DNA of 64,000 nucleotides, from contig JACPTX010000053.1 of assembly GCA_016192545.1 (NCBI GenBank), positions 1,129 through 65,128 of the forward strand, given 5' to 3'. Source of the stretch: Candidatus Omnitrophota bacterium (lineage in GTDB: Bacteria > Omnitrophota > Gorgyraeia > Aquiviventales > Aquiviventaceae). Made by a program: the position numbers and the translations under genes. Shown here piece by piece: positions 5,136 to 50,108 of the stretch. Within the stretch, counting starts at the first letter, position 1. Every line of letters begins with the position of its first letter. The notes beneath the pieces are model-generated. The model searched no databases. It was not told where the DNA came from and worked only from the letters and a program-made list of their open reading frames with translations.

Positions 5136-6260
5136 TCAGACTTCAAGCACTTTCGGCGCTTCGGTGAGGAGCCGATAACCGTCCCGGGTGACGACGGCCA
5201 TGTCCTCGATGCGCATGCCGCCGGCGTCGGCGTAGTAGAGGCCCGGCTCGACCGTCACCACCATCCCTGCGCGCAGCGTGTCAGGGCGCGGGTTGATGCG
5301 GGGCGGCTCGTGGATTTCCAGCCCCACGCCGTGGCCGGTGCCGTGGAAGAAACCCTGCATGCGCCCGTCCTGCTCGCCGGTCTGAAAGCCTAACGACTCG
5401 AAGTGTTCGAGGATCGCCTTGTGGATGGCGGAGCCGTCCACCCCGTCGCGGATCAATCGGTAGGCGATCTCCTGCCCTCCCTGCACCGCCTCGAACATCC
5501 GGCGGACCTTGTCGGACGCCTTCCCCTTCACGACGGTGCGGGTGATGTCGGCGAAATAGCGCGTCACGGCGTGCTGGGGAAACACGTCCATCACGATCGG
5601 CTCGTGCGCGCGCAGGGGCCCCGAGCCTTCGTTGTGGGGGTCCACCGCCTGCAGGCCCGGCGCCACGATGGTGTGCTGGCCCACGCAGTCGCGCTCCATC
5701 ATCTGCAGGTGGAGGACCTTGCGGATGAACTCGACGGTGAGCGGCTTGCCGCCGATGCGCAGCGTCCCGTCCGGCAGGATCTCCGAATTGCGGATCAGCT
5801 CGATCGCGCACGCCAGCGCCTCCTCGGTCGCGCGCAGGGTCCGGGTGATGGCCGCGATTTCCTCCTCGGACTTGATCAGGCGCTCCGGGTAGAACGGCTC
5901 GGGCTTGGCCGCGACCTCATAGCCCCGCTGGCGCAGCCCGTCGGCGTAATGGACGCTGAAGTCGAGCGGCACCTCGATGGCCTGCACGCCGTGGCCCTTG
6001 AGCACCTCGTCCACCACGTCCACGAACCCCGCCTCGGCGCCGAGCCGGCGCTTGGCCTGCGCCGCGAACTTCGCGTAAGACAGCACGTCGGTGACCGTGG
6101 CCTGCGCGCGGGCCCGGTCAATCTCCAGGTCGCTCATCACGAGGATCTTGCGGCCGTTAATCTGTATGAAGATGAAGGCGTCCGGCGCCAGGAACCGGGT
6201 CGCGTAATAGAGGTTGGCGTTCTTCTCGCTGTCCGCGATGATGAGGCGGGCGGTGCTCAT
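5136..6260 (-). CDS. M24 family Xaa-Pro aminopeptidase
   Basis: 374 aa with creatinase-like N domain and pita-bread C domain carrying metal ligands (DVFPQ...YFADITRT, HGTGHGVGLEIHE, VEPGLY, RIED). Confidence 0.85.
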   Translation of the reverse strand: MSTARLIIADSEKNANLYYATRFLAPDAFIFIQINGRKILVMSDLEIDRARAQATVTDVLSYAKFAAQAKRRLGAEAGFVDVVDEVLKGHGVQAIEVPLDFSVHYADGLRQRGYEVAAKPEPFYPERLIKSEEEIAAITRTLRATEEALACAIELIRNSEILPDGTLRIGGKPLTVEFIRKVLHLQMMERDCVGQHTIVAPGLQAVDPHNEGSGPLRAHEPIVMDVFPQHAVTRYFADITRTVVKGKASDKVRRMFEAVQGGQEIAYRLIRDGVDGSAIHKAILEHFESLGFQTGEQDGRMQGFFHGTGHGVGLEIHEPPRINPRPDTLRAGMVVTVEPGLYYADAGGMRIEDMAVVTRDGYRLLTEAPKVLEV

Positions 6261-6284
6261 GCTCGGGCACTCTGGTCGCGCATG

Positions 6285-8012
6285 TCAGAAATCGAACTGG
6301 AAGGTGACGTGGAACAGGTGGTTGGAATCGTCGGTGAGGGGATCATCGCCGACGTTGAAGCCCCACTCGACTTTCGCAGACAGGTGGTCGTCAACCTGCA
6401 ACTGGAAGCCGGTGCCGATCCCCGTGAGGTTGCGCGATTCGCGCTCCTCAGCGGTGATCGCCCGCAGGCGCCCGTAGCCGCGGTCCACGAATGCCAGGAG
6501 CCGCAATTGATCCCGCAGGCGGCCCTTGGCCAGCGGCAGCTTCCACGCCTCCGGCAGGAACCGGCACGGGACGTGGTACTCCGCGCGCGCGATAAACCCC
6601 ATATCCGCCAGGTAGTCCCCTTCCGGATAGCCGCGCACTGAGCCTGACCCGCCGAGGTACAGCTCCTCCTGCGGGGTGAGCTTGGACGGCGAGAGCTGCG
6701 TCTCGACGCTGAGGACGGCCAGCGTCTGCCACGGCATCTTCTGGACGCGGCTCACCTGCATCCCGAACTTGAAGAAATCCGGATCCGCCCCGGGGCGGCT
6801 GGCGAGGAGGTTGTTCTCGCTCATCGCCCCAAGCGCCTTGAGCCCGAACGCATACTCGTTCGTCACCGACCACCGCCCCCATTGGTCGTTCACCTGGAAC
6901 CGCGGCTCGATCCGCAGGACGCGCAGCCGGTCGCGGCGGCTGACGTCGGCCTGCACCATGGTGCGGCTCTCCTTGAAGTCGAGCCCGGCCTGCGCCTCAA
7001 GCGACCAGCGCTCCTTTTCGAAGATTGATTGGATGACCGCCACGGTGTAGGTGTTGGACGTCCCATGCACGCCGAAGGGCTTGAACTGCCGCTTGGGCGA
7101 GGCCTGGGAGTGGGTGTACTGGAACATGAGCGTCGTGCCGTAGGGGCTCACCGGCACCGCGTAGTTCGTGTAGACCGCGCCGAATTCCTTCCCGAAGACC
7201 GTGCCGAGGATAAAGCGGTCATCGAAGCCGAGCAGGTTGTTGTGGCGGACCGACGCCCCGTAGCGGAAGCGTCCGATCGGCTTGGTGCCTTGCCGGTCCC
7301 AGGAGCCGCCCGCATGCATGGGAAGCTTCTCCGTGACCTTCAGGATGACATCTGTCTGGCCGGTTTCCTTGCCGGCCCGCAGCGCGGCCTGCACCTGCCG
7401 GTCCGGGTGCTTGTTCATGCGGGCCAGGTGCTTGACCATGGCCTGGTAGCGGAGCACCTCGCCGGGCTTGGTGCGCCAGTACCACTTCACCAGGCTCGTG
7501 TGGAAGTAGCGGTTGCCCTCCACGATGACCTCGCCCAGCTTGCCCTCAACCACCTGGATCATCGCTCGGCCTTCCTCGATGCGCTGGGGCGGGACATAGG
7601 CGATGGTCGTCAGATACCCTTGCTTGCGGTACTCCTTCTCAATCTTGTCGGCCAGCGCGATCAAATCGCTGACGCCGATCTCATGGTCTTGGTACTCCGC
7701 AATCAGCGGCCTGAACGTCTTGTCCGGCAGCGTGGTGTTGCCTTCGATCTGGATTTCTTTGAGGACGAACCGGACCTCTGCAGGTGGGGCGGGTTTTTCG
7801 ACGCGCTCCGGCTCGCGATCGATCACGGGCGGGCGGTGGACCGGGCGCTCTTTCTCCTCGCGCTCCCGATGGATGCGCTCTTCGATCACGTCCGACTCCG
7901 AGGCGGGATCCCGCACGACCTGCGCCGCGGCTGTCCCGCCCCACGACAGGAGCAGCAGCGCGACCGCGCCGCAGCGGGATATAAGACGGCTTAACGTTGC
8001 TGAAGCATTCAT
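6285..8012 (-). CDS. TpsB outer-membrane transporter of two-partner secretion (ShlB/FhaC/HecB family)
   Basis: Signal peptide MNASATLSRLISRCGAVALLLLSWGGTAAAQ from internal ATG 8012. POTRA-like region (VRFVLKEIQIEGNTTL) followed by a beta-barrel ending in the OMP signature ...FHVTFQFDF. Divergent from a TPS-domain giant gene. Confidence 0.85.
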   Translation of the reverse strand: MNASATLSRLISRCGAVALLLLSWGGTAAAQVVRDPASESDVIEERIHREREEKERPVHRPPVIDREPERVEKPAPPAEVRFVLKEIQIEGNTTLPDKTFRPLIAEYQDHEIGVSDLIALADKIEKEYRKQGYLTTIAYVPPQRIEEGRAMIQVVEGKLGEVIVEGNRYFHTSLVKWYWRTKPGEVLRYQAMVKHLARMNKHPDRQVQAALRAGKETGQTDVILKVTEKLPMHAGGSWDRQGTKPIGRFRYGASVRHNNLLGFDDRFILGTVFGKEFGAVYTNYAVPVSPYGTTLMFQYTHSQASPKRQFKPFGVHGTSNTYTVAVIQSIFEKERWSLEAQAGLDFKESRTMVQADVSRRDRLRVLRIEPRFQVNDQWGRWSVTNEYAFGLKALGAMSENNLLASRPGADPDFFKFGMQVSRVQKMPWQTLAVLSVETQLSPSKLTPQEELYLGGSGSVRGYPEGDYLADMGFIARAEYHVPCRFLPEAWKLPLAKGRLRDQLRLLAFVDRGYGRLRAITAEERESRNLTGIGTGFQLQVDDHLSAKVEWGFNVGDDPLTDDSNHLFHVTFQFDF

Positions 8013-8054: not shown

Positions 8055-8117
8055 GCATTCATGCGGGTCATGCGAGTGCCCCGTGCATATTGGCCTGTCA
8101 GGTGTCAAAACTGCTAC

Positions 8118-8143
8118 TTTTACCAGACTACAGTCTGGTAAAA
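8118..8143. promoter_or_regulatory. Perfect 12-bp inverted repeat TTTTACCAGACT-AC-AGTCTGGTAAAA in the tpsB/tpsA divergent region
   Basis: Read directly from the sequence. Lies in AT-rich intergenic DNA between divergent TPS genes. Candidate operator or hairpin. Confidence 0.4.
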
Positions 8144-8178
8144 ATACAATGTAATGTCCTCATTTGGCGGGTGACGCG

Positions 8179-8239
8179 GGTTTGCGGGGACACGATATTG
8201 TGTCCTATCGCTATTTCGCATATCGTGTCCCCGGAATTA
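8179..8239 (+). repeat. 61-bp hairpin repeat, copy 1 (second copy at 18699..18759)
   Basis: ggtttgcGGGGACACGATATtgtgtcctatcgctatttcgcATATCGTGTCCCCggaatta. Identical to 18699..18759 except one base (8184 g vs 18704 c). Has a 13-bp stem and 21-nt loop. Both copies are in the same orientation. Confidence 0.9.
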
Positions 8240-8304
8240 AAAATAGCGGCGCTCCCTCGACGGAGCACCGTCGGATCAGGTAAACTTAACCTTAGAACTC
8301 ACAA

Positions 8305-8400
8305 CTGGTTGTGCTGAAAAAGGCAAACTATCCGAAAGGGTAGGACGCAAAGCTACCGGTCCCGGTGCCAGGCACCGGCGATAGCGGGGCTGCCAGCGTA
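8305..8400 (+). promoter_or_regulatory. c-di-GMP-I (GEMM-I) riboswitch aptamer
   Basis: GGCAAACUAUCCGAAAGGGUAGGACGCAAAGCUACCGG...CCGGCGAUAGCGGGGCUGCCAGC aligns block by block with the V. cholerae Vc2 aptamer as recalled. Shared blocks are GGCAAAC, a GAAA-capped P2 hairpin, GACGCAAAGC, a P3 CCGG/CCGG stem and AGCGGGG. GCUG(8313-16)/CAGC(8394-97) can close P1. Confidence 0.85.
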
Positions 8401-8414
8401 AGTAAGTCCTTACG

Positions 8415-8442
8415 ACGTCCTCCGTTTCGGGGGACGTTTTTT
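8415..8442 (+). terminator. Intrinsic terminator (riboswitch expression platform)
   Basis: ACGTCCTCC-GTTTC-GGGGGACGT gives a 9-bp stem with one G-U pair, followed by a T-run, ending 8 nt before the tpsA ATG. The 5' arm CGTCCT can alternatively pair with aptamer AGGACG (8342-8347). Confidence 0.75.
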
Positions 8443-8449
8443 CATTCGC

Positions 8450-11400
8450 ATGAGTCACATGGACGAGTGGGACCCCAATCCGAGTGACGGCACGTTGACG
8501 ACGAGGCGCGGCCTCCGGCGCGCTTCGCGTCGTCGTCTGCAGCGACGGTGGCGCTTCGCCGGCTGCTACGCCCTCGGGCTCACCGTCGCGATCCATGCCC
8601 TCTTGCCGACGACGGTGCTCGCCCTGCCTGAAGGCCCCTCAGTCGTCGAAGGGACCGCGACGATTGAGCAAACCGAGACTACGCTCACCATCACCGCCTC
8701 GGACAACTCCATCGTGGAGTTCTCGCAGTTCAACATCGCGCCGAACGAATCCGTGATCTACGTCCTGCCCGACGTGAACGCCTCGACGCTCAGCCGCGTC
8801 ACCGGCGGCAGCGCCAGCTATATCCAGGGCTATCTGTCCATCAACGGCACGCTGTTCTTGATCAACCCCGCCGGCATCACGTTTGCGCCGACCGCCACCG
8901 TCAACGCCGGCGGGCTCATCGCCTCCACCCTGCAGCTCCAGAACGCCGATTTCCTCGCCGGCCAGTACACATTCGGCGCGCCTAACCGGACGTCGCTGGC
9001 CTCGGTCGTCAACCAGGGCGCGATCGCGGTGGCCGAGGGCAGCTACGCGGTGCTGATGGGTGGGGCGGTCTCCAATACCGGCACGATTACCGCGCCGCTC
9101 GGCGAGGTGGTCATGGCGGCAGGCCAGATGGTCACCATCGGCGTCTCGCCGGACAACAGCCTCGTGGTCGCGATTGACAAGGCGGTGGCGAAGGAGGTCC
9201 TCGACGCGCAAGGCCAACCCATCACCACCCAGCTGGAGAACACCGGCACCATCGCGGCGGAGAGCGGGCGCGTCGTGCTGACCGCCGAGTCCGCGAATAA
9301 TGTCTTTGACTTGGCGGTGAACCAGGAGGGCATCATCCGCGCCGACGCCGTCGTGGTGGATGAGACCGGCGCCATCGAAATCGTCGCCTCAGGGCCCGTG
9401 CGCAGCGTCGGCACCATGAGCGCGCAGGCCGGCCGGATCCGCGTGGAGTCCACCAAGTCGGACGTCTCGGTCGGCGGCGAGTACCTGGCCAAGGATGGCT
9501 CCGTCGACGTGACGGCCGCGCGCGACTTGACCGTGGTCGCCACGACGCAGACGGCCGGCGCCACCACGTTCCAGGCCAAGCGGGACCTCAAGGTGCAGGC
9601 TGATCTGACGACCGACTCCGGCAATCTCACGCTGGCGGCGGATGCTGACCTCGACGGCGTGGGAAGCTTCTGGCAATCCGCCGGCACGACCATCGCCACC
9701 ACCACGTTCGGCGACATCACCATCTCCGCCTCCGGCGAGAGCACCTTGGCCAACGTCAGCTCGGCCGGCTCCCTGACCCTCAAGCAGGCCGGCGCGCCGA
9801 TCACGTACCGGCAGCATCCCGGCTCGACGGTGAACACGGCCGGCTCGATCACCATCCAGCCCGGCACGACGCTGGATGCCGCCACGACGGTCTATCAGGT
9901 CGGCAAGGATTGGATCAACCTCGGCGACTTCATCGCGGGTCAGTCCGCGGTGTGGCTGACCAGCTCGCAGCCCGCCCTGATCCAGGGCTCGACGACCTTC
10001 AACGACTTCGGCTCAACCGTTCCCGGCAAGCCGATCTACTTCGAGGCCCTGACCCTTCAAACCATCCTCGGCACGACCACGTTCCGGGGCGACTTCGGCA
10101 ACCTGCTCCTCCTGCGCTCCACCGTGCCAGGCCAGCAGTTCAGTCTCATGACAAATGACCAGACATTTGTCAGGTACACTGACTTCATGGACGCCTGGAT
10201 ACGCGGTCCTCCGCTTGCTCCAGCCCACTCTAAGAACTCTGGAAATAATCTGGGAATTGACTTTTCCCTGGCCGGCCCAGTGTGGACCGGCTCAGGCGGC
10301 ACCACCAACTGGTCAGACCCCTTCAACTGGGACGGAGGATTTACTCCAGGACAATTTGACCTCGTTCGCTTCGCCACAGGCGGACAATTGTCTGTGGTGG
10401 ACCCCGCCTTTTCCGGCACGATCGCCGGGCTTGCCTTGGAAGCCGGCTACCTCGGCACGGTCACCTTAGCTCGCACCCTCACCGTCACCGGCAGCCTCAC
10501 CATCAGCTCTGGCACGCTCAGCCTCAATGGCCACGGACTGAGCGTCTCCGGGACGTTCTCCAACGACGGAACCCTGCGCCTCCAGGGCGGGGAGAGCGTG
10601 ACCTTGGCCGGCGGCAACGACACCGACTCCGGGACCTGGGAGTATGTCGGCAACGGGGATGGCACGGTTGATCTCTGGACGATCAAGGACTTCGGCGCCA
10701 CCGACTACTACAACCTCCTGCTCAACGACACGCACGCCACGCCGGACCGCTTCGCGCTTGGCTCGGATATCACCATCACCGGCGACCTCACCCTGGCAGG
10801 CGGAACCCTGGAGGCCGGCTCCTACACCCTCACAGTGAGCCGGAATTGGGCCTTGCAGGGGGGTTCCTTCGATGCCGGCACCTCTACCGTAGTCTTCAAC
10901 GACGCCTCCCAGGCGAGCCAGATCCTGGGCAGCACCACCTTCTACAACTTCACCTCCACCACCCCTTCCAAGGTGCTCGCATTTGAAGCCGGCTCCGCCC
11001 AGACCATCCTGGGCACCTGGACCATCCGGGGCGCCTACGGTCAGCACGTGAAGCTGGTCTCCACCACCCCAAGCTCCCTGGTCGGCACAGACCCCTCCAA
11101 GCGCTGGCTGGTCAACCCGCAGGGCCCGATTGACGTCTCCTACGCCTGGGTGGAGGACTCGCACAACGTCAACCCGGTCGAAATCACGATGATCGAATCC
11201 ACCAACCGCGGCAACAGCATCGGCTGGGACCCCACCGGCATCTGGATCGGCCCAGCCGATGGGCTCTGGTCGAACACCGCCAACTGGAGCGGCCTGGGCG
11301 GCGCCACCCCGGGCGCCGGCGATGACGTCGTCTTTGAAAACGGCCCGACCGGCGCTAACACGAACTCCACGGTCGACGCCAGCTTCGGCGGCACGATCGG

Positions 11401-14400
11401 CAGTTTGACGACCCAGAGCGGCTACACCGGCACCATCACCCTGGGGCGCTCTCTCACCATCACCACGTCAAGCGGCCGCAGCGGAGCGCTCACCCTGGGC
11501 ACAGGCGCCACGATCTCCCAAGGAGCCAACACGGTAGTCGCCGAGAGCTACAGCCAGTCCGCCGGAACCTTCACGGGCGGCTCCTCGAACCTCACCCTTA
11601 ACGGCACGGCCACCATCACCGGTGGGACAATGACGCTCACCAGCGCCACGACCCAGGTGACCTCGATGACCATCAATGCCCCGGGGGTCGTCCGCATGGC
11701 CTCCAACAGCGTCCTGAACCTCACCGGCTCCGGCACCCCCCTGTCCGGCACCGGCACCTTGGATGTCACCACGAACACCCCGAACACCGTCCAGTACACC
11801 GGGACAGCCACGACCGATATCACGGCGGCGGGCCCGCTCACCGCCTACCACAACCTCACCCTGGCCCCTTCAGGATCTGGTCCCATGAGTGAAGACGGTA
11901 GTCTGACCTTAGTCGATCCGGAGAACCTTCTCTACGCGGCGGTCATCGATACGACGAACGGCTTCGCCTACTTCGGGACGGGCACCACCCCCGGCCGTGT
12001 CGTGAAGGTCCGGCTCTCGGACTTCACCCGGGTGGGGGCCTTGACGCTGGCCAGCGGGGAGAACGACCTCCGCTCCGCGGTCATTGACCCCGGGGCGGGG
12101 TTTGCGTACTTCGGGACGTACACCTCCCCGGGGATCGTCGTGAAGGTCCGGCTGTCGGACTTCACCCGCAATGCGGCCTTGACGTTCAATAGCGGGGAGA
12201 ACCTCCTCGTCTCCGCGGTCATTGACCCCGGGGCGGGGTTTGCGTACTTCGGGACGTACACCTCCCCGGGGATCGTCGTGAAGGTCCGGCTCTCCGACTT
12301 CACCCGGGTGGGGGCGCTGACGCTGAATGCGGGACCGCCTCCGTCGACGGCTGAGAACATCCTCTCTTCCGCCGTCATTGACACCACGAACGGGTTTGCG
12401 TACTTCGGGACGGGCCAAAGCCCCGGCAAGGTCGTCAAGATTAACCTGGCGACCTTCACCCGGGTGGGGGCGCTGACGCTGAATGCGGGGGAGAACGGCC
12501 TCACCTCCGCGGTCATTGACCCCGGGGCGGGGTTTGCGTACTTCGGGACGTACACCTCCCCGGGGATCGTCGTGAAGGTCCGGCTCTCCGACTTCACCCG
12601 GAATGCCGCGCTGACCCTGAATGCGGGGGAGGACAGCCTCTCCTCCGCGGTCATCGACCCCGGGGCGGGGTTTGCGTACTTCGGGACGGACTTTGTGTGC
12701 TGGGGGTCCTGCGGCTCTACCCCCCCGGGGATCGTCGTGAAGGTCAATCTCGTGGGAAGTGTCACGATGCGCCTGGGCACCGCCGCCAGCCAGACCCTCA
12801 CGGTGAATGGAAATTTGACGATCGGGAATGGCACCAACGCCGTGACGGTCACCGCGGCGACCTACAATCCCAATATCCTGGTGGCTGGCAACTTCACCTT
12901 GAACGCCAACTCGACCTGGACGAAGGGCAGCGGCACGCTCACCTTCAACGGCACCGGGAACCTCACGGACAGCAACGCCACGAAGCAGGACCTCGGCAAC
13001 GTGGTCATCAGCAACAGCTCGACCCGGACCCTGACCACCGCAGTCAAGATGACCGGCCTCACGATCAACTCCGGCAACACCTTCGTCCTGGCCGGCAACA
13101 CCTTCGCGTTCTCCGCGTTCGGCTCCCCCGACTATTGGAATCTCACCATCGCCGGGGATGCCAGCGAAACGTTCACGCCGGGCGGGGCGCTGGATGTCGA
13201 TGGCGTCTTCACGCTCACCTCGGGGACATTCGCGCAGGGCGCCAACACCATGAACGTCGCCGGGAACTTCAGTCTGGCCAGCGGCGCCACCTTCACCAAA
13301 GCCACCGGCGGCCAGGCCCTGACCTTCGATGGGACCGGCAATCTCTCGGACAGCAACGCCACGAAGCAGGACCTCGGCAACGTGGTCATCAGCAACAGCT
13401 CGACCCGGACCCTGACCACCGCTAGCACGATGACGAACCTCACGATCAACTCCGGCAGCACCTTCTCGCTCGCCGGCAACAACTTCACCTTCTCGGCCTC
13501 CGCCGCCGTCAACAACTCCGGCACCTTCCGGCTCGTTGGAAACGAGACCCTCACGAACGTGTCGAACCTCGATATTGATTCGGGGACGGTGGTCTACGAG
13601 GGGGTGGCGGATTCGTTCGCGACCACCTACCTCATCAAGGACTTCGGAGGCACGGACTACTACAACCTCCGGTTCTCTTACGCTGGCGATCCCCTCGACG
13701 CTGACACGTTCCAGCCGATGAGCGGATTGGCGGTGGCAGGCACCTTCACCATTGACGGAGGCATCTACGACGCCAACGGCCAGACGACGACCGTCACCGG
13801 ACTGGCCACCATCGGCGGTGCCGGCCGCATCACCGGCTATCTGGCCTCGACCGCCACCCAGACGTTCAACGGCGGGCTGACGCTTTCCTCGGGCGGCAGC
13901 CTGACCGGTTCCAGCGGCCTCCTTGATGTCAACGGCGCGCTCACGCTCAATGCCGCCACGTCGTTCTCCCAAGGCACGGCCGCCCTGAACGTGTCCGGAA
14001 CCTTGAGCATCGCCAACGGGCCCGTCTTCACCAAGGCCACCAACGGGACGGCGCTCACGTTCGACGGGGACGGCAACCTCACGGACAGCAACGCCGCCGG
14101 CTCCAAGGTGGACCTGGGCAACGTCGTCATCTCCAACAACTCCCTCCGGATGGTCACGAGCCCAGGCGATACCGGGGTGAAGATGACCAGCCTGACGATC
14201 AACAGTGGCAGCACCTTCGCGTTGGAAAACAGCGTCTTCGAGTTTTCCGCCTCGGCGGCGGTGGTCAACAACGGCACCTTCAGGCTGTATGCCACGGCCA
14301 CGCTCACCAACGTCACGAACCTGGACACCGACTCCGGCACGGTGGAGTACAATGCCACTGGCGCGGCTCTGAAAGACTTCGGTGCGGCAGACTACTACAA

Positions 14401-16429
14401 CCTCACGCTCGATTCCCCCGGCACCTTTACCCTGGCAGGACCACTGGATGTCAACGGAGCCTTCACCATGACGCTCGGGACGCTGGACCAAGGCACCAAC
14501 ACGATGAATGTCGCCGGGAACTTCACGATCGGGGTCCTCGCAGGCTTCACTAAGTCCTCCAATAACTCTGCGCTCACCTTCGACGGCACCGGCAACCTCA
14601 CCGACTCCACCGCCACGAAGCAGGACCTCGGCAACGTGGTCATCAGCAACAGCTCGACCCGGACCCTGACCACCGCAGTCAAGATGACCGGCCTCACGAT
14701 CAACTCCGGCAACACCTTCGTCCTGGCCGGCAACACCTTCGCGTTCTCCGCCAGCAACTTGGACACGGACTCCGGCACCGTGGAGTACGTCGGGGATGGG
14801 GCCGGCGGAGTGGCCAACTTCACCCTCAAGGACTTCGGCTCACCCGACTACTTCCATCTCACCATTGCCGGGGATGCCAGCGAAACCTTCACCCCGGGCG
14901 GGGCGCTGGACGTCAACGGGGTCTTCACCCTCACGAGCGGGACCTTCAGCCAGGGCGCCAACACGATGAACGTCGCCGGGAACTTCAGTCTGGCCAGCGG
15001 CGCCACCTTCACCAAAGCCACCGGCGGCCAGGCCCTGACCTTCGATGGGACCGGCAATCTCTCGGACAGCACCGCCACGAAGCAGGACCTCGGCAACGTG
15101 GTCATCAGCAACAGCTCGACCCGGACCCTGACCACCGCAGTCAAGATGACCGGCCTCACGATCAACTCCGGCAGCACCTTCTCGCTCGCCGGCAACACCT
15201 TCGCGTTCTCCGCCTCCGCCGCGGTCAGCAACTCCGGCACCTTCCGGCTCAACGGCACTGAGACCTTGACGAACGTCACGAACCTCGATGTGGACTCCGG
15301 GACGGTCGAGTACGTCGGCGATGGGGCGGGCGGGACGGCCACCTTCACCCTGAAGGACTTCGGGGGGACGGATTACTACAATCTGACGATCAATTCGACC
15401 GCCGGGGATGAAACGTTCCAATTAGGCGGCGCGTTGGATGCCAACGGCACGCTCACCATCACCAGCGGGACGCTCGACGTCACCGGCAACAATTACGCCA
15501 TCAATGTGGCCGGGAACTGGTCGAACTCCGGCACGTTCACCGCGCGGAGCGGCTCGGTGACGCTGGACGGTGCCAGCCAGCAGATCCTGGGCTCCACAAC
15601 GTTCTATGAGCTCATCAAGACCGTAACCGCCGCCGACACACTGACGTTCCAGGCCGGCACGACGCAAACCATCACCGGTGCCAACACTCTGACGCTGAAG
15701 GGCACGGCGGGTGCGCTGTTAAGCTTGCGCTCCAGCAGCCCTGGCACTGCGTGGTCTATTGACCCCCGCGGGAGCCGTTCGGTGGAATACCTGGACGTGC
15801 AGGACTCCACCAACGTCAACGCCACTCAAATTGACTGTCTAACTGGGTGTGTTGATTCGGGCCGCAACAGCGGGTGGCGCTTCTCGCTGCCCGCGGCAGC
15901 GGCGGCAGCGGCTGATGGCGGCCTCGGCAACGATGTGGTGAACGACGCGGTCGAGATCGTGGACGTCTTCGAGCCGGACCTGCCGGAGCTTGGCGACGCG
16001 GAAGAACCGGTCATCGAGCCGCAGGCCCAGGCGCCGCAAGCCCAGGAACCGGCGCAGGAGGAGCAGGCGGCCGCTGAAGCCGAGGCGGAAGAGGACCTGT
16101 GGGAGGCCTTCGGGACGGCCGAGGCCGCGGAGGGCATGACCACCGAAGTGACCGTATTCGAAGGGGAGGTGTATATGGTATGCTATAGTGAGAAGGAGGG
16201 GGAGCGGAAGCAGGAGCCCTGCGGCACCGTGAAGGCGGGGCAGAAGACTGCGGTGAAGTTCAACCGCTCGCCGGAACCGCTGAAGCGCCTGGCCGTGCTC
16301 AAGCAGCTCCGCGGCCAGCGTCAGGGGTTCAGTCTGCGGCGCCAGCAGGGACCGCTATCCACTGCGGGGCGGGTGCTGGGGTTCGTCCTGTGGCAGGTGC
16401 TGGACGTCATCACGAACGACAACGAGTAA
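8450..16429 (+). CDS. Giant TpsA exoprotein / filamentous-haemagglutinin-like adhesin (2659 aa)
   Basis: N-terminal TPS secretion domain (LPEGPSVVEGTATIEQ...FSQFNI...LINPAGITF, an NPxGI-type motif at 8864-8878). Followed by long Thr/Gly/Asn-rich beta-helix-like repeats, about eight ~45-aa AVIDxxxGFAYFGT...VVKVRLSDFTR repeats, and an acidic Ala/Glu/Gln C-terminal linker. The exact start (8450 vs 8459) is uncertain. Confidence 0.9.
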   Translation: MSHMDEWDPNPSDGTLTTRRGLRRASRRRLQRRWRFAGCYALGLTVAIHALLPTTVLALPEGPSVVEGTATIEQTETTLTITASDNSIVEFSQFNIAPNESVIYVLPDVNASTLSRVTGGSASYIQGYLSINGTLFLINPAGITFAPTATVNAGGLIASTLQLQNADFLAGQYTFGAPNRTSLASVVNQGAIAVAEGSYAVLMGGAVSNTGTITAPLGEVVMAAGQMVTIGVSPDNSLVVAIDKAVAKEVLDAQGQPITTQLENTGTIAAESGRVVLTAESANNVFDLAVNQEGIIRADAVVVDETGAIEIVASGPVRSVGTMSAQAGRIRVESTKSDVSVGGEYLAKDGSVDVTAARDLTVVATTQTAGATTFQAKRDLKVQADLTTDSGNLTLAADADLDGVGSFWQSAGTTIATTTFGDITISASGESTLANVSSAGSLTLKQAGAPITYRQHPGSTVNTAGSITIQPGTTLDAATTVYQVGKDWINLGDFIAGQSAVWLTSSQPALIQGSTTFNDFGSTVPGKPIYFEALTLQTILGTTTFRGDFGNLLLLRSTVPGQQFSLMTNDQTFVRYTDFMDAWIRGPPLAPAHSKNSGNNLGIDFSLAGPVWTGSGGTTNWSDPFNWDGGFTPGQFDLVRFATGGQLSVVDPAFSGTIAGLALEAGYLGTVTLARTLTVTGSLTISSGTLSLNGHGLSVSGTFSNDGTLRLQGGESVTLAGGNDTDSGTWEYVGNGDGTVDLWTIKDFGATDYYNLLLNDTHATPDRFALGSDITITGDLTLAGGTLEAGSYTLTVSRNWALQGGSFDAGTSTVVFNDASQASQILGSTTFYNFTSTTPSKVLAFEAGSAQTILGTWTIRGAYGQHVKLVSTTPSSLVGTDPSKRWLVNPQGPIDVSYAWVEDSHNVNPVEITMIESTNRGNSIGWDPTGIWIGPADGLWSNTANWSGLGGATPGAGDDVVFENGPTGANTNSTVDASFGGTIGSLTTQSGYTGTITLGRSLTITTSSGRSGALTLGTGATISQGANTVVAESYSQSAGTFTGGSSNLTLNGTATITGGTMTLTSATTQVTSMTINAPGVVRMASNSVLNLTGSGTPLSGTGTLDVTTNTPNTVQYTGTATTDITAAGPLTAYHNLTLAPSGSGPMSEDGSLTLVDPENLLYAAVIDTTNGFAYFGTGTTPGRVVKVRLSDFTRVGALTLASGENDLRSAVIDPGAGFAYFGTYTSPGIVVKVRLSDFTRNAALTFNSGENLLVSAVIDPGAGFAYFGTYTSPGIVVKVRLSDFTRVGALTLNAGPPPSTAENILSSAVIDTTNGFAYFGTGQSPGKVVKINLATFTRVGALTLNAGENGLTSAVIDPGAGFAYFGTYTSPGIVVKVRLSDFTRNAALTLNAGEDSLSSAVIDPGAGFAYFGTDFVCWGSCGSTPPGIVVKVNLVGSVTMRLGTAASQTLTVNGNLTIGNGTNAVTVTAATYNPNILVAGNFTLNANSTWTKGSGTLTFNGTGNLTDSNATKQDLGNVVISNSSTRTLTTAVKMTGLTINSGNTFVLAGNTFAFSAFGSPDYWNLTIAGDASETFTPGGALDVDGVFTLTSGTFAQGANTMNVAGNFSLASGATFTKATGGQALTFDGTGNLSDSNATKQDLGNVVISNSSTRTLTTASTMTNLTINSGSTFSLAGNNFTFSASAAVNNSGTFRLVGNETLTNVSNLDIDSGTVVYEGVADSFATTYLIKDFGGTDYYNLRFSYAGDPLDADTFQPMSGLAVAGTFTIDGGIYDANGQTTTVTGLATIGGAGRITGYLASTATQTFNGGLTLSSGGSLTGSSGLLDVNGALTLNAATSFSQGTAALNVSGTLSIANGPVFTKATNGTALTFDGDGNLTDSNAAGSKVDLGNVVISNNSLRMVTSPGDTGVKMTSLTINSGSTFALENSVFEFSASAAVVNNGTFRLYATATLTNVTNLDTDSGTVEYNATGAALKDFGAADYYNLTLDSPGTFTLAGPLDVNGAFTMTLGTLDQGTNTMNVAGNFTIGVLAGFTKSSNNSALTFDGTGNLTDSTATKQDLGNVVISNSSTRTLTTAVKMTGLTINSGNTFVLAGNTFAFSASNLDTDSGTVEYVGDGAGGVANFTLKDFGSPDYFHLTIAGDASETFTPGGALDVNGVFTLTSGTFSQGANTMNVAGNFSLASGATFTKATGGQALTFDGTGNLSDSTATKQDLGNVVISNSSTRTLTTAVKMTGLTINSGSTFSLAGNTFAFSASAAVSNSGTFRLNGTETLTNVTNLDVDSGTVEYVGDGAGGTATFTLKDFGGTDYYNLTINSTAGDETFQLGGALDANGTLTITSGTLDVTGNNYAINVAGNWSNSGTFTARSGSVTLDGASQQILGSTTFYELIKTVTAADTLTFQAGTTQTITGANTLTLKGTAGALLSLRSSSPGTAWSIDPRGSRSVEYLDVQDSTNVNATQIDCLTGCVDSGRNSGWRFSLPAAAAAAADGGLGNDVVNDAVEIVDVFEPDLPELGDAEEPVIEPQAQAPQAQEPAQEEQAAAEAEAEEDLWEAFGTAEAAEGMTTEVTVFEGEVYMVCYSEKEGERKQEPCGTVKAGQKTAVKFNRSPEPLKRLAVLKQLRGQRQGFSLRRQQGPLSTAGRVLGFVLWQVLDVITNDNE
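11930..12760 (+). repeat. Tandem ~135-bp coding repeats inside tpsA (AVIDPGAGFAYFGTYTSPGIVVKVRLSDFTR units)
   Basis: About 8 successive units. Several share long identical DNA stretches, e.g. gcggtcattgaccccggggcggggtttgcgtacttcgggacgtacacctccccggggatcgtcgtgaaggtccggct at ~12076, ~12214 and ~12507. Confidence 0.85.
12976..13116 (+). repeat. 141-bp intragenic repeat in tpsA, identical to 14611..14751
   Basis: cgccacgaagcaggacctcggcaacgtggtcatcagc...caacaccttcgcgttctccgc read at both places. Related ~290-bp segments at 13139-13430 and 14864-15135 are nearly identical. Confidence 0.85.
14611..14751 (+). repeat. 141-bp intragenic repeat in tpsA, identical to 12976..13116
   Basis: See the partner copy at 12976..13116. 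Confidence 0.85.
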
Positions 16430-16438
16430 GGAGGCGGG

Positions 16439-16909
16439 ATGCGTGACCTTCGAGCAGGGTGTCTTGTGGTCGCACTCCTCAGCTTGAGTCTGGCCAGCGC
16501 CCACGCCCAGTCTACGCGCCAGGCGACCGTCGCCGAAGTCCGTGGCGACGTCTCGGTCAAACTCGCCGGCGGTGAGTGGCAGCCCGCCGCGGTCGGCGCC
16601 CTCCTCAATGAGAAGGATGAGATCAAGACCGCCGCCGGCGGCTACGCCCAGCTCCTCCTAGATGAGAACGGGCAGACTGCGCAGGTCGAATTGAAAGAAA
16701 ACAGCCACATGCGGCTGAACACGATGAGCCGCGATCCCGAGACCGGCAACAAGACGACCCTGCTGGACCTGGCCATCGGCCGGGTGCTGGTCCACGCGGA
16801 GAAACTGCAAGGGGATTCCAAGTTCGAAGTCCGGACGCCGACGTCCACCACGGGAGTCCGCGGCACCGTCTTCGAGGTCAGCGCGGAAAAAGAGTCCCCG
16901 ACGCCCTAA
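16439..16909 (+). CDS. FecR-domain periplasmic protein
   Basis: 156 aa. Signal peptide MRDLRAGCLVVALLSLSLASAHA, then DEIKTAAGGYAQLLL...VRTPTSTTGVRGTVFEV, typical of the FecR domain. GGAGG lies 5 nt upstream of the ATG and 9 nt after the tpsA stop. Confidence 0.75.
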   Translation: MRDLRAGCLVVALLSLSLASAHAQSTRQATVAEVRGDVSVKLAGGEWQPAAVGALLNEKDEIKTAAGGYAQLLLDENGQTAQVELKENSHMRLNTMSRDPETGNKTTLLDLAIGRVLVHAEKLQGDSKFEVRTPTSTTGVRGTVFEVSAEKESPTP

Positions 16910-16921
16910 GCTCTCAGGTGC

Positions 16922-18697
16922 ATGGGCCAAGCCCCGCGTCAAGCCCTCCCGCTCAGCAAGCGCGCGCTGCTCCTGCAATTCGGCCTCGGCCTCCTCGTCA
17001 TTGCAGCGCATCTCTGCTGGTTGACGTCCTCCGGCCTGCCGCGCGTCGAGCATCTCGTCCTGGACACCTTCTTCCGGCAGCGCGGCGCGCTGCCGACCCA
17101 CCCGGCCATCGTCTACATCGAGATCGCGGAGGACAGCCTGCAGGCGATCGGCCGATGGCCCTGGCCGAGGCACTACCACGCGGTGATGGCGGCCCTCCTC
17201 AAGGAGTGGGGCGCGAGGGCGGTCGTCTTCGACATGCTCTTCAGCGAACCCAGCACTGACTTCGACGATGGCGCGCTGCGCGAAGCGCTCCAGCAGTTCC
17301 CCTCGGTCTATCTGCCGGTCGTCCTGGAACCGCAGGCGGAGGGCGCGGCCTGGATTCGCTCCCTGTCTGTCTTCGAGGAGGCGGCGCGCGGCGTCGGCCA
17401 CATCAACATCACGCCGGATGCCGACGGGGCTCTGCGGAGGATTCAGCCCTATCTCACAGAGGGCGGCCGGACCTACCCACACCTGTCCCTGCGCATCGCC
17501 TATGACTACCTGGGACAGCCCCTCCCCCCGCCGGCGACCGAGGCGGGCACCCCCGCAGGGGGTCGCCGAGGAAGTCCCGGAGGCGCAGCCGGAGGGAAGC
17601 CCAACACCATGCCATTTCCACTGGATGCGGACGGCAACCTGCTCATCAACTGGTCCGGCCGATGGGCCCAGACGTTCGCGCATTATTCGTACGTGGACCT
17701 GCTCAAAAGCTTCGAGGCGATGCGCGGCGGCCGCCCACCCCTCGTCAGGCCGGAGGCGTTCAAGGACAAGATCTGCCTGATCGGGCTGACCGCGACGGGC
17801 CATGCCGATACCAAGGTCACGCCGTTGGAGCCGGCGTACCCCGCGGTCGGCATCCATGCCAACGTCATCAACAGCCTCCTCACGAATCGGTTCATCACGC
17901 CGGCGTCGCGGCGCACCAACGCCCTGTGCCTGATCGGCATCGGGCTGCTCGCCCTGCTGGGGTTTGTGCCGTTCCGGCGCATCACGTCCCTCACCGCAGG
18001 AGCCGCCTTGGGGCTCGCGTGGGTCGTCATCGCCTACACCCTGTTCGTGCGCCAGGGGCTGTGGCTGTACGTCGCGCATCCGCTGCTGCTGCTCCTGTCC
18101 CTGTTCCTGGCGGCGGCGATCTCCGCCGTCGCCATCGGGGCCCGCGAACAGGCGCGGCTGTTTCAGCTCGCCACCCGCGACGGCCTCACGGAGCTGTACC
18201 TCATGCGGCACTTCCGGGGGATCCTCCTGCAGGCCATGCAGGAGGCCCGGCAGCGGAGCGAGCCGCTGTCGGTGATCCTCATGGACGTGGATCACTTCAA
18301 GCGCATCAACGACACCTACGGGCACCAGGCCGGCGACCAGATCCTCAAGCGGACCGCGCAGGTCATCCAGTCCTGCGTCCGCACCAAGCGTCCCAATGGC
18401 CAAACGGATGAAGCGGCCGCCCGCTACGGAGGCGAGGAGTTCATCGTCCTGCTGCGCAACTGCACCCTGGACAATGCGGCGTCCAAAGTCGCGGAGCGCA
18501 TCCGCGCGGCCGTCGAGCAGGCCACATTCCAATGGAACCAGACAACCATCCCGGTCACCATCAGCCTCGGCGTCTCCACGCTGCGGCCCAGCGACCAGGA
18601 GCCGGACCCTCTCATCCGCCGGGCCGACCAGGCGCTCTATCACGCCAAAGCCAACGGCCGCAACCGCGTCTCCACCGAATCCACCCTCGTCGGCTAG
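16922..18697 (+). CDS. CHASE2 sensor domain - transmembrane - GGDEF diguanylate cyclase
   Basis: N-terminal CHASE2 pattern (IVYIEIAEDSLQAIGRWPWPRHYHA...VVFDMLFSEPS), three or more TM helices, and a C-terminal GGDEF domain with an intact RYGGEEF active site and DHFKRINDTYGH. Confidence 0.85.
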   Translation: MGQAPRQALPLSKRALLLQFGLGLLVIAAHLCWLTSSGLPRVEHLVLDTFFRQRGALPTHPAIVYIEIAEDSLQAIGRWPWPRHYHAVMAALLKEWGARAVVFDMLFSEPSTDFDDGALREALQQFPSVYLPVVLEPQAEGAAWIRSLSVFEEAARGVGHINITPDADGALRRIQPYLTEGGRTYPHLSLRIAYDYLGQPLPPPATEAGTPAGGRRGSPGGAAGGKPNTMPFPLDADGNLLINWSGRWAQTFAHYSYVDLLKSFEAMRGGRPPLVRPEAFKDKICLIGLTATGHADTKVTPLEPAYPAVGIHANVINSLLTNRFITPASRRTNALCLIGIGLLALLGFVPFRRITSLTAGAALGLAWVVIAYTLFVRQGLWLYVAHPLLLLLSLFLAAAISAVAIGAREQARLFQLATRDGLTELYLMRHFRGILLQAMQEARQRSEPLSVILMDVDHFKRINDTYGHQAGDQILKRTAQVIQSCVRTKRPNGQTDEAAARYGGEEFIVLLRNCTLDNAASKVAERIRAAVEQATFQWNQTTIPVTISLGVSTLRPSDQEPDPLIRRADQALYHAKANGRNRVSTESTLVG

Positions 18698-18698
18698 C

Positions 18699-18759
18699 GG
18701 TTTCCGGGGACACGATATTGTGTCCTATCGCTATTTCGCATATCGTGTCCCCGGAATTA
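18699..18759 (+). repeat. 61-bp hairpin repeat, copy 2 (first copy at 8179..8239)
   Basis: Begins 2 nt after the diguanylate cyclase stop. Same orientation as copy 1. Confidence 0.9.
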
Positions 18760-18775
18760 CCAGCTAGCCTGTTGA

Positions 18776-49292: not shown

Positions 49293-50108
49293 TTACGAGA
49301 CCCCCTGTTGTTTAAGTGCCCCACTCACCAATTCCTCCATCGTCCACAGATGGTCGGTCAGATCTGCGGCCATGGCCGGAGTCATTTTTAGCGTCCTATG
49401 CCATCGGCAGAAGTTATAGTAGCTGAAATATAGGTGCAGAGCCGCTAGATGATTCTCTGATTTCTTTGAGAACGCGCTTGTTTTACGCGCCAGTCGCCGC
49501 ACACTCATCCGCATCGTGAGATTGTTCCGCTCAACGTAGGACGTACTAATCTTCTCCACGTTGGGGTTGCCAGCGACCACCACTGGACGAGCGCCCACTA
49601 CTTCATCGCCGCGATATATTTTCATCAATTGTCCAAAATGGACTTCTGTGCCAAAGGCCAATTCTGCAGCGTCTCGGTAAGCCAGCAAACCATCCGTCGT
49701 AAGTTGAAACTCACCTACAAGTCGTCGCCGTAAATCCATCATGAGCCGGTAGGCTGAGGCCGTATCCCGGTGCCCCAAGATATAGCTAATTACCAGTTTA
49801 GTATCAGCATCTAACGCCACAAAGACCCACACTTCGCCTTTATAGCCGTTCATAACTGCGCCTATATGCTCAGGATCAGCCTCTTTTTTTCCGATGAATG
49901 ACCATAACTCATCGGCTTGGACGTACTTGGCCTGAATGTTTTGAATCTTGGCATCAAGGAGGCGGTGGCAGGAGTCGCCAGCCCGAACGAGCCAGGACAT
50001 AATCGTATTCTGATTCACGCCTGTCATGCGCTCTAAGGCGCGAATACTGTGCCCTTCTACGAGGCCACCGAGTATCGTTAGGACTTTCTCTTTTCTCAGC
50101 ACATACAT
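49293..50108 (-). CDS. IS1-family-like DDE transposase (single ORF)
   Basis: 271 aa with N-terminal HTH (HSIRALERMTGVNQNTIMSWL), ADELWSFIGKK, VFVALDADTK, LTTDGLLAYRDA and TSYVERNNLTMRMSVRRLARKTSAFSKK. These parallel IS1 InsB motifs ([39 protein letters not shown]) as recalled. Confidence 0.75.
   Translation of the reverse strand: MYVLRKEKVLTILGGLVEGHSIRALERMTGVNQNTIMSWLVRAGDSCHRLLDAKIQNIQAKYVQADELWSFIGKKEADPEHIGAVMNGYKGEVWVFVALDADTKLVISYILGHRDTASAYRLMMDLRRRLVGEFQLTTDGLLAYRDAAELAFGTEVHFGQLMKIYRGDEVVGARPVVVAGNPNVEKISTSYVERNNLTMRMSVRRLARKTSAFSKKSENHLAALHLYFSYYNFCRWHRTLKMTPAMAADLTDHLWTMEELVSGALKQQGVS

Follow-up and report, generated by a model that had tools for sequence, protein, structure and literature searches.

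The DNA analyzed in this study is a stretch of 64,000 nucleotides (64 kb; hereafter the window) from Candidatus Omnitrophota bacterium (assembly GCA_016192545.1, contig JACPTX010000053.1, positions 1,129 to 65,128, forward strand). Our subject is the 5′ leader of tpsA, a gene for a giant two-partner secretion (TPS) exoprotein. This leader contains an RNA element which almost certainly belongs to the cyclic di-GMP (c-di-GMP)-I riboswitch class, also known as GEMM-I, and which is followed by an intrinsic terminator. The genes of the locus are as follows:

6285-8012, minus strand: tpsB, encoding a ShlB/FhaC-type Omp85 transporter (ShlB, PF03865; POTRA_2, PF08479; exact protein MBI3088305.1, Candidatus Omnitrophota)
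8450-16429, plus strand: tpsA, encoding a protein of 2659 aa (TPS secretion domain PF05860 at residues 64-304, E = 6e-30)
16439-16909, plus strand: gene for a FecR-domain protein of 156 aa (PF04773), which starts 9 nt past tpsA; the exact protein is also encoded on Logan contigs
16922-18697, plus strand: gene for a CHASE2-GGDEF diguanylate cyclase of 591 aa (PF05226, PF00990)

The locus encodes both components of a two-partner secretion system, i.e. a TPS-domain TpsA and, nearby, an Omp85-type TpsB with POTRA domains; tpsB is divergent from tpsA. A prediction made earlier from the nucleotide sequence (the original prediction) had placed a giant TPS exoprotein directly downstream of a riboswitch, and the open reading frame (ORF) at 8450-16429, with its N-terminal TPS domain, agrees with this. 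The gaps between the three plus strand genes are 9 and 12 nt, no plus strand terminator was found between the tpsA, fecR-domain and cyclase genes, and a strong promoter-like site (TAGACA-18-TATAAT) is located downstream of the cyclase gene. Judging by this layout, the three genes appear to form a single operon downstream of the riboswitch. Riboswitch control of tpsA, as originally proposed, is consistent with the position of this gene, but the target appears to be a three-gene operon including a diguanylate cyclase, and not the adhesin-like protein alone. The cyclase contains the motif GGEEF at residue 503 and, five residues upstream, QTDE at the place where the RxxD of an I-site is expected. 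It is likely to be an active enzyme devoid of an allosteric I-site, with no obvious product inhibition.

The whole window was compared with Rfam at gathering thresholds using cmscan. This revealed a single riboswitch match (8313-8398, plus strand; clan CL00126; E = 7e-14), for which the top model was RF03167 (c-di-GMP-I-GGC; 67.7 bits, the gathering score being 59). A second, lower-scoring overlapping match of the same clan, with at least its own gathering score, was omitted from the cmscan output; it is presumably RF01051 (gathering score 35). The GEMM-I aptamer of the original prediction is therefore supported above gathering at the level of the clan, but its best Rfam model is RF03167 and not RF01051. 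The aptamer is composed of the following elements:

8313-8398, plus strand: c-di-GMP-I-type (GEMM-I) aptamer (67.7 bits with RF03167; 78.4 bits with the canonical-only model R2, described below)
8309-8316, plus strand: 5′ strand of helix P1, whose core GCUG (8313-8316) pairs with CAGC (8394-8397)
8323-8348, plus strand: P2, in which an internal loop separates the pairs G8323-C8348 and C8324-G8347 from a 6-bp stem (8328-8333/8338-8343) capped by a GAAA tetraloop (8334-8337)
8351-8391, plus strand: P3, a long, nearly continuous helix
8394-8401, plus strand: 3′ strand of P1, of which 8397-8401 doubles as the 5′ arm of an intermediate hairpin

The conserved GEMM-I blocks were found exactly where they had been predicted: GGCAAAC (8322-8328), CUAUCC-GAAA-GGGUAG of P2 (8328-8343), GACGCAAAGC (8344-8353), CCGG of P3 (8356-8359) and AGCGGGG (8383-8389). 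The P1 helix may be extended to 8 bp, two G.U pairs included. Covariation was examined in an alignment of 50 sequences, comprising the window, the leader of an orthologous tpsA gene (locus L148, see below) and 48 canonical relatives. The original prediction had named covariation inconsistent with P1, P2 and P3 as grounds for its rejection; in this alignment the helices are supported. The inner pairs of P1 covary, the P2 stem is 98.7% paired with four of its six pairs covarying, and P3 is 95.5% paired with four covarying pairs. P2 and P3 taken together are paired in 85% of the cells, compared with 73% in shuffled alignments and 28-41% for slid partners, and double-sided changes were detected in 15 of 27 pairs. 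The covariation score was 0.408, a value reached by none of 500 shuffles (0.185); slid partners scored 0.104 or less. All helices of the alignment accommodate the window sequence, and C8346 and G8384, the equivalents of the interhelical C44-G83 pair, are invariant. In addition, the leader (153 nt) folds better than all of 200 shuffled sequences (z = -3.7).

The nucleotides of the window that correspond to ligand-contacting residues of the Vc2 aptamer are:

8322, plus strand: G, the equivalent of Vc2 G20, unpaired and placed just 5′ of the P2 G-C pair (model alignment)
8349, plus strand: A, the equivalent of Vc2 A47, the first unpaired base past P2 and identical with the canonical A
8393, plus strand: C, the equivalent of Vc2 C92, within the unpaired GC ahead of the P1 3′ strand (model alignment)

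In Vc2 all three residues contact the ligand, G20 making contact with one of its guanines (PMC4744006, PMC5888326). The context of position 47 reads GACGCGAA (GACGC-G-AA) in the RF03167 consensus and GACGCAAA (GACGC-A-AA) in the RF01051 consensus; the window has GACGCAAA. A8349 is the sole mismatch of the window to the conserved RF03167 core and is apparently the base that gives the variant its name, as we infer that “GGC” denotes a G at the A47 equivalent (the middle letter). The GGC variant reportedly originates from the 2017 PNAS study of Weinberg et al., its ligand being said not to have been established; the 224-RNA paper contains no description of it. As a member of this orphan class, the window element would sense a ligand other than c-di-GMP, and several of its features do resemble RF03167: it is the top-scoring model, the AAAAAGGCAAAC and GCUGCC blocks are common to both, and P3 of the window, like that of the RF03167 consensus, is devoid of the CUAAG...UAUG tetraloop-receptor bulges carried by most of the 48 canonical relatives (the GAAA loop is retained). 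The tetraloop receptor is not obligatory for the c-di-GMP-I class, and the plain, receptor-less P3 probably explains why RF03167 outscores RF01051. The base after GACGC is, unlike in RF03167, an A as in RF01051, and the G20 and C92 equivalents are canonical. A metagenome scan with the pattern AAAGGCAAAC-N4-CGAAAG-N4-GGACGC-R-AAGC also argues against a variant ligand, as all 121 matches in the fetched loci have A at position 47. A covariance model (R2) built from the 48 canonical relatives only, with the window left out, recognized the aptamer with 78.4 bits (E = 3.7e-17) as its sole match in the window; these relatives had been picked with a window-derived pattern, so that the share of the score contributed by P2 and the core is not independent.

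Membership in the GGC variant was rejected on the basis of A8349, present instead of G, despite a score above the gathering threshold, and a ligand other than c-di-GMP is very improbable. A c-AMP-GMP (GEMM-Ib) riboswitch was rejected as well, since the position-20 equivalent is G8322 and not A; studies by Kellenberger and by Nelson (both 2015) reportedly place an A at this position in GEMM-Ib. As read from the aligned positions, the binding-site nucleotides are the ordinary c-di-GMP-I triad, and the label c-di-GMP-I is right because the variant-defining base is canonical. We therefore have very little doubt about the identity of the aptamer. A top match to RF03167 alone is no proof of the GGC variant; the diagnostic base must be read.

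The leader of tpsA contains an expression platform with alternative pairing, built of these elements:

8332-8347, plus strand: 5′ strand of the antiterminator (last 2 nt of the P2 5′ strand, GAAA loop, P2 3′ strand and core GGACG)
8397-8414, plus strand: intermediate hairpin CGUAAG/CUUACG, a competitor of the outer P1 pairs and one element of the predicted ligand-free three-way junction
8414-8442, plus strand: intrinsic terminator (stem 8414-8424/8428-8438, loop UUU, U-tract 8437-8442)
8416-8430, plus strand: 3′ strand of the antiterminator (5′ arm and loop of the terminator, followed by 3 nt from the beginning of its 3′ arm)

The hairpin and T-run originally predicted in front of tpsA are present, but the hairpin (8414-8438) has 11 pairs, including two G.U, instead of 9 bp, and the U6 tract ends 7 nt, not 8 nt, before the ATG at 8450. 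Three terminator-like sites were detected in the region, compared with 0.7 expected from shuffled sequences. It is likely that this terminator attenuates transcription. The complementarity between CGUCCU of the terminator 5′ arm (8416-8421) and AGGACG of the aptamer core (8342-8347), noticed in the original prediction, was confirmed; it extends to a helix of 14 bp (8332-8347 with 8416-8430) containing one mismatch and one bulge. The distal part of this helix (8332-8337/8425-8430) is formed by six pairs, four of which involve UUUC (8425-8428) of the terminator loop. Across 8200-8413, the best partner of the terminator 5′ arm is found inside the aptamer.

According to energy calculations, the antiterminator competes with both P2 and the terminator. 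It is the unconstrained minimum free energy (MFE) fold of transcripts ending at 8427-8431, and at ends 8428-8434 it is better by 6.7-13.9 kcal/mol than the fold with the ligand-free aptamer. For ends 8438-8442 the two folds are within ~1 kcal/mol of each other. When P1, P2 and P3 are enforced, the terminator is the only fold remaining for 8402-8442. Binding of a nanomolar ligand contributes roughly 12-13 kcal/mol, on grounds of general thermodynamics, which matches the size of the gap between the folds.

These results lead us to lean, by a narrow margin, towards the view that 8309-8442 constitute a complete class-I c-di-GMP riboswitch, which attenuates the tpsA - fecR-domain gene - CHASE2-GGDEF operon and is OFF at high c-di-GMP. 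In the absence of the ligand, the nascent strand 8416-8430 would invade P2 and the aptamer core (8332-8347), while the hairpin 8397-8414 would sequester the P1 3′ strand. The resulting three-way junction (P3, hairpin 8397-8414 and the 14-bp helix) would act as an antiterminator and permit read-through into tpsA. In this read-through conformer 8431-8449 would be single-stranded, so that translation could benefit too. Upon binding of c-di-GMP, P1, P2 and P3 would be locked and 8416-8424 left free to pair with 8428-8438, causing a stop at the U-tract. The original prediction held that the direction of the switch cannot be read from the sequence. The structural logic does predict OFF, a sign that we only slightly favor, and it remains uncertain because one ortholog (L150) looks like a translational ON switch.

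The orthologous loci provide a wider context for this mechanism. Homologs of TpsB with 47-56% identity come from Omnitrophota, and TpsA orthologs occur in five lineages (L146, L148, L150, L152 and L154; 55-62% identity over ~460 aa), in all of which tpsB and tpsA are co-directional. A GEMM-I aptamer precedes tpsA in two of the five loci (L148 and L150), each time with a different expression platform; with the window included, the aptamer-tpsA link is present in three of six Omnitrophota lineages. The L148 aptamer scores 68.8 bits with RF01051, and that of L150/L151 54.5 bits with covariance models built in this analysis. Between the three leaders, the sequence differences in the P2 and P3 stems are compensatory. 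No riboswitch was found upstream of tpsA in L146, L152 and L154 (the tpsB-tpsA gaps of L146 and L154 were also searched with filters off), nor in fifteen more distant TPS loci, mostly of Nitrospira. Eighteen loci from a GTDB scan with the TpsA N-terminus (mostly Nitrospira, 33-49% identity) were not used as orthologs, none of them having a c-di-GMP riboswitch, and the closest protein matches to the TpsA N-terminus are encoded on contigs too short to include leaders. A TPS-domain ORF is present in none (0/121) of the sampled GEMM-I metagenome loci. The aptamer-tpsA link thus recurs in this Omnitrophota gene family and is rare elsewhere.

In L148 (GCA_016206585.1, an Omnitrophota metagenome-assembled genome [MAG]; 11845-12045) the aptamer is followed by two tandem intrinsic terminators (~11967-11994 and 12012-12043), and a consensus-like promoter (TTGGAA-17-TATAAT) is situated ~70 nt upstream. 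Its leader shares with the window the design in which the core is opposed to a terminator arm (GGGGCGCA versus UGCGCCC, and GAAA versus UUUC). The terminator arms of two unrelated GEMM-I leaders (L050 and L130) carry GCUUUGCGU, a complement of the aptamer core. The L150 locus (GCA_016201735.1, also an Omnitrophota MAG; 6187-6303) has a P2 loop of UGUAAAG, not GAAA, and its aptamer ends 26 nt before a GTG start codon, with no terminator.

A number of observations weigh against ligand-dependent OFF attenuation in the window. The antiterminator duplex (-22.9 kcal/mol, against -17.4 ± 2.6 for shuffles; p = 0.036) exceeds chance only modestly, and the terminator 5′ arm alone does not stand out (p = 0.34). 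In the full-length MFE fold the terminator forms without any ligand, and read-through would therefore require a kinetic window. Neither a promoter nor a transcription start site of tpsA could be fixed: no consensus sigma-70 promoter was found, candidates matching at 8-9 of 12 positions only, and the best promoter-like site on the plus strand of the intergenic region is TTACCA-19-TACAAT (8120-8150; 9/12). Upstream of the ATG at 8450 (or that at 8459) no Shine-Dalgarno (SD) sequence could be seen; the only purine-rich run near the start, GGGGGA (8429-8434), is part of the terminator 3′ arm, 15 nt upstream. There is also the precedent of B. thuringiensis Bc1, which binds c-di-GMP yet exerts no regulation in vitro or in vivo, so that an aptamer and terminators need not regulate (PMC11218506).

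Several of these points would suit an aptamer that binds c-di-GMP but is coupled to a non-switching platform, i.e. a largely constitutive attenuator or terminator with regulation that is weak or requires a protein factor: the persistence of the terminator in the MFE fold, the weak antiterminator statistics, the Bc1 case and the presence of operator-like palindromes upstream. Such an arrangement is nonetheless unlikely, given that the two fold energies are balanced, that the opposition of core and terminator arm recurs in L148, L050 and L130, and that the 8-kb gene would be silent if the terminator 7 nt ahead of it were constitutive.

Other observations concern the sign of the switch. C-di-GMP usually induces adhesins, and TPS adhesins such as CdrA of P. 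aeruginosa are among those induced. In L150, the SD sequence AAGAGGAG and the GTG start region pair with the P3 3′ strand at -24.5 kcal/mol, compared with -12.9 ± 2.4 kcal/mol for shuffles (0/3000), when the aptamer is unfolded. This pairing implies ligand-dependent activation, and our modeling predicts for L150 a translational ON switch of opposite sign to that of the window; therefore either orthologs differ in sign, or one of the two inferences is wrong. Nearly all class-I riboswitches of C. difficile are OFF switches, among them one located ahead of a putative adhesin, and some members of the class, e.g. Cdi-1-1, are ON (PMC6200980). With an ON sign, the same riboswitch of the window would respond to c-di-GMP by promoting read-through and/or translation, and the cyclase would create positive feedback and commitment to surface attachment. 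In the search for such a mechanism we asked whether the terminator overlaps P1, whether 8402-8413, once released, can pair with the terminator 3′ arm, and whether segments of the upstream leader can pair with the terminator; nothing competitive was found. No element of the window ties the folded aptamer to loss of the terminator, which does not overlap P1; 8414-8438 still form the terminator with the aptamer enforced, and the location of the best partner of the terminator 5′ arm, within the aptamer, follows OFF logic. An ON sign for the window is thus possible, though on the doubtful side, and OFF attenuation is the reading that we retain.

Comparison with known systems places the window element close to the c-di-GMP-I riboswitches of RF01051 (V. 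cholerae Vc2 and the terminator-type OFF switches Cd1/Cdi-1 of C. difficile), with which it shares (i) a three-helix aptamer with a GAAA-capped P2, (ii) the G20/A47/C92 triad, (iii) the interhelical C-G pair, (iv) an intrinsic-terminator platform and (v) a target of the surface-protein or adhesin kind, such targets being among the known ones. It differs from the usual members in its long, plain P3 without the GAAA-receptor motif, and from the Vc2/Cd1 type in the predicted switching strand, which is the P2 3′ half with the aptamer core and not the P1 3′ strand. A TPS exoprotein with a FecR/CHASE2-GGDEF pair as the target, and Omnitrophota as the host, also set it apart from the known examples. 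CdrA/CdrB of P. aeruginosa is a c-di-GMP-regulated TPS adhesin system, in which CdrA is induced by c-di-GMP via a protein transcription factor. The window is similar in its large TpsA exoprotein, with expression that is predicted to be tied to c-di-GMP, but its control would be exerted by RNA and would be repressive. Bc1 likewise consists of a class-I aptamer followed by intrinsic terminators, a tandem pair as in L148 (PMC11218506); unlike Bc1, with its dual terminators unresponsive to c-di-GMP, the window has a single terminator, other genes and a host of another phylum. The BiofilmReg operon of Burkholderia encodes a FecR-domain protein and a CHASE2 sensor with histidine kinase output (PMC5192318). 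The window similarly encodes, side by side, a FecR-domain protein of the periplasm and a membrane sensor with CHASE2, but the output is a GGDEF cyclase and the pair is placed behind riboswitch-controlled tpsA.

The FecR/CHASE2-GGDEF pair is widespread in Omnitrophota. It was found without tpsA in two relatives (L159, 9225-11713; L160, 9539-11752), in which no riboswitch was detected upstream of the pair. Five TpsB and five CHASE2-GGDEF homologs have the same longest-contig sizes (281628, 36511, 38177, 33711 and 87250), which suggests that the two systems often share a contig. In a Verrucomicrobiota MAG (L017, 7930-8675, minus strand), a MISL RNA (RF03079, 514.9 bits) is located ~1.3 kb upstream of a TPS gene.

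The intergenic region between tpsB and tpsA contains further elements. A near-perfect palindrome, TACTTTTACCAGACT-AC-AGTCTGGTAAAAATA (8115-8146; 15-nt arms, 93% complementary), overlaps the TTACCA-19-TACAAT site and, from its sequence, looks like an operator. The interval separating the riboswitch from tpsB has, on the minus strand, a terminator-like hairpin, CGGTGCTCCGTCGAGGGAGCGCCG, followed by CTATTTTT (8270-8247), which may stop antisense transcription leaving the tpsA leader. Beyond this hairpin is the likely promoter of tpsB (TTGCAT-17-TATAGT, with TG upstream; 8054-8026). The sequence ATAGCGGCGCTCCC (8243-8256) resembles the conserved 3′ block of the aptamer, ATAGCGGGGCTGCC (8381-8394), with 86% identity; it could be a decoy strand or a product of chance.

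A 58-nt element, GGTTT(G/C)CGGGGACACGATATTGTGTCCTATCGCTATTTCGCATATCGTGTCCCCGGAATTA, with a 13-bp stem and a 21-nt loop, is present in two direct copies (55 nt identical), at 8180-8240, between tpsB and the riboswitch, and at 18700-18760, just past the stop codon of the cyclase gene. The riboswitch-tpsA-fecR-CHASE2-GGDEF unit (10.5 kb) is exactly what lies between the two copies. No further copies were found in the window or in 155 comparison loci, and the element has no Rfam match; it could be a REP-like (repetitive extragenic palindromic) element, an att-like cassette boundary or a 5′/3′ RNA hairpin. Two Logan contigs with 99%-identical tpsB (L156 and L157) end at the equivalent of ~8214, i.e. 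202 nt upstream of tpsB and inside the upstream copy, as would be seen with an assembly break at a repeated element. Because these contigs stop there, they reveal nothing of the variation of the leader within the population.

Eight proteins of the window have counterparts, either exact or within 90%-identity clusters, among those of an NCBI MAG of a Candidatus Omnitrophica/Omnitrophota bacterium (MBI3088304-MBI3088351). Elsewhere, the window has the content of an ordinary chromosome, with thyX, nuo genes and transporters. It includes a gene (52222-54981) whose product combines an MMPL/RND-type membrane protein with a cyclic-nucleotide-binding domain at the C terminus, and a DDE-type transposase gene (49293-50108, minus strand), whose exact protein occurs on 11 contigs, and which is therefore a repeated mobile element in the population.

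The window riboswitch adds one more example to a class that is among the commonest of all riboswitches. It is unusual, not categorically new, in its target, its phylum and a receptor-less P3 combined with a canonical triad that scores best on RF03167. Full-text literature searches revealed no paper in which two-partner secretion or filamentous hemagglutinin was linked to c-di-GMP riboswitches. In its most elaborate form, the system may be viewed as a self-contained, RNA-gated c-di-GMP homeostat, in which an OFF switch controls an I-site-less cyclase, its FecR partner and a giant TpsA, the latter perhaps serving as the extracellular input of the FecR/CHASE2 sensor, on a movable-looking, repeat-bracketed unit whose sign has been rewired in an ortholog (the translational ON switch of L150). 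We regard this composite picture as speculative and rather unlikely to hold as a whole.

The finding extends the targets of class-I c-di-GMP riboswitches to TPS exoproteins and to the uncultivated phylum Omnitrophota. With a riboswitch placed over a diguanylate cyclase, the second messenger would regulate its own production through RNA. An OFF switch on an operon including the I-site-less cyclase would establish RNA-level negative feedback on c-di-GMP synthesis; if the switch is ON, the feedback would instead be positive and bistable.

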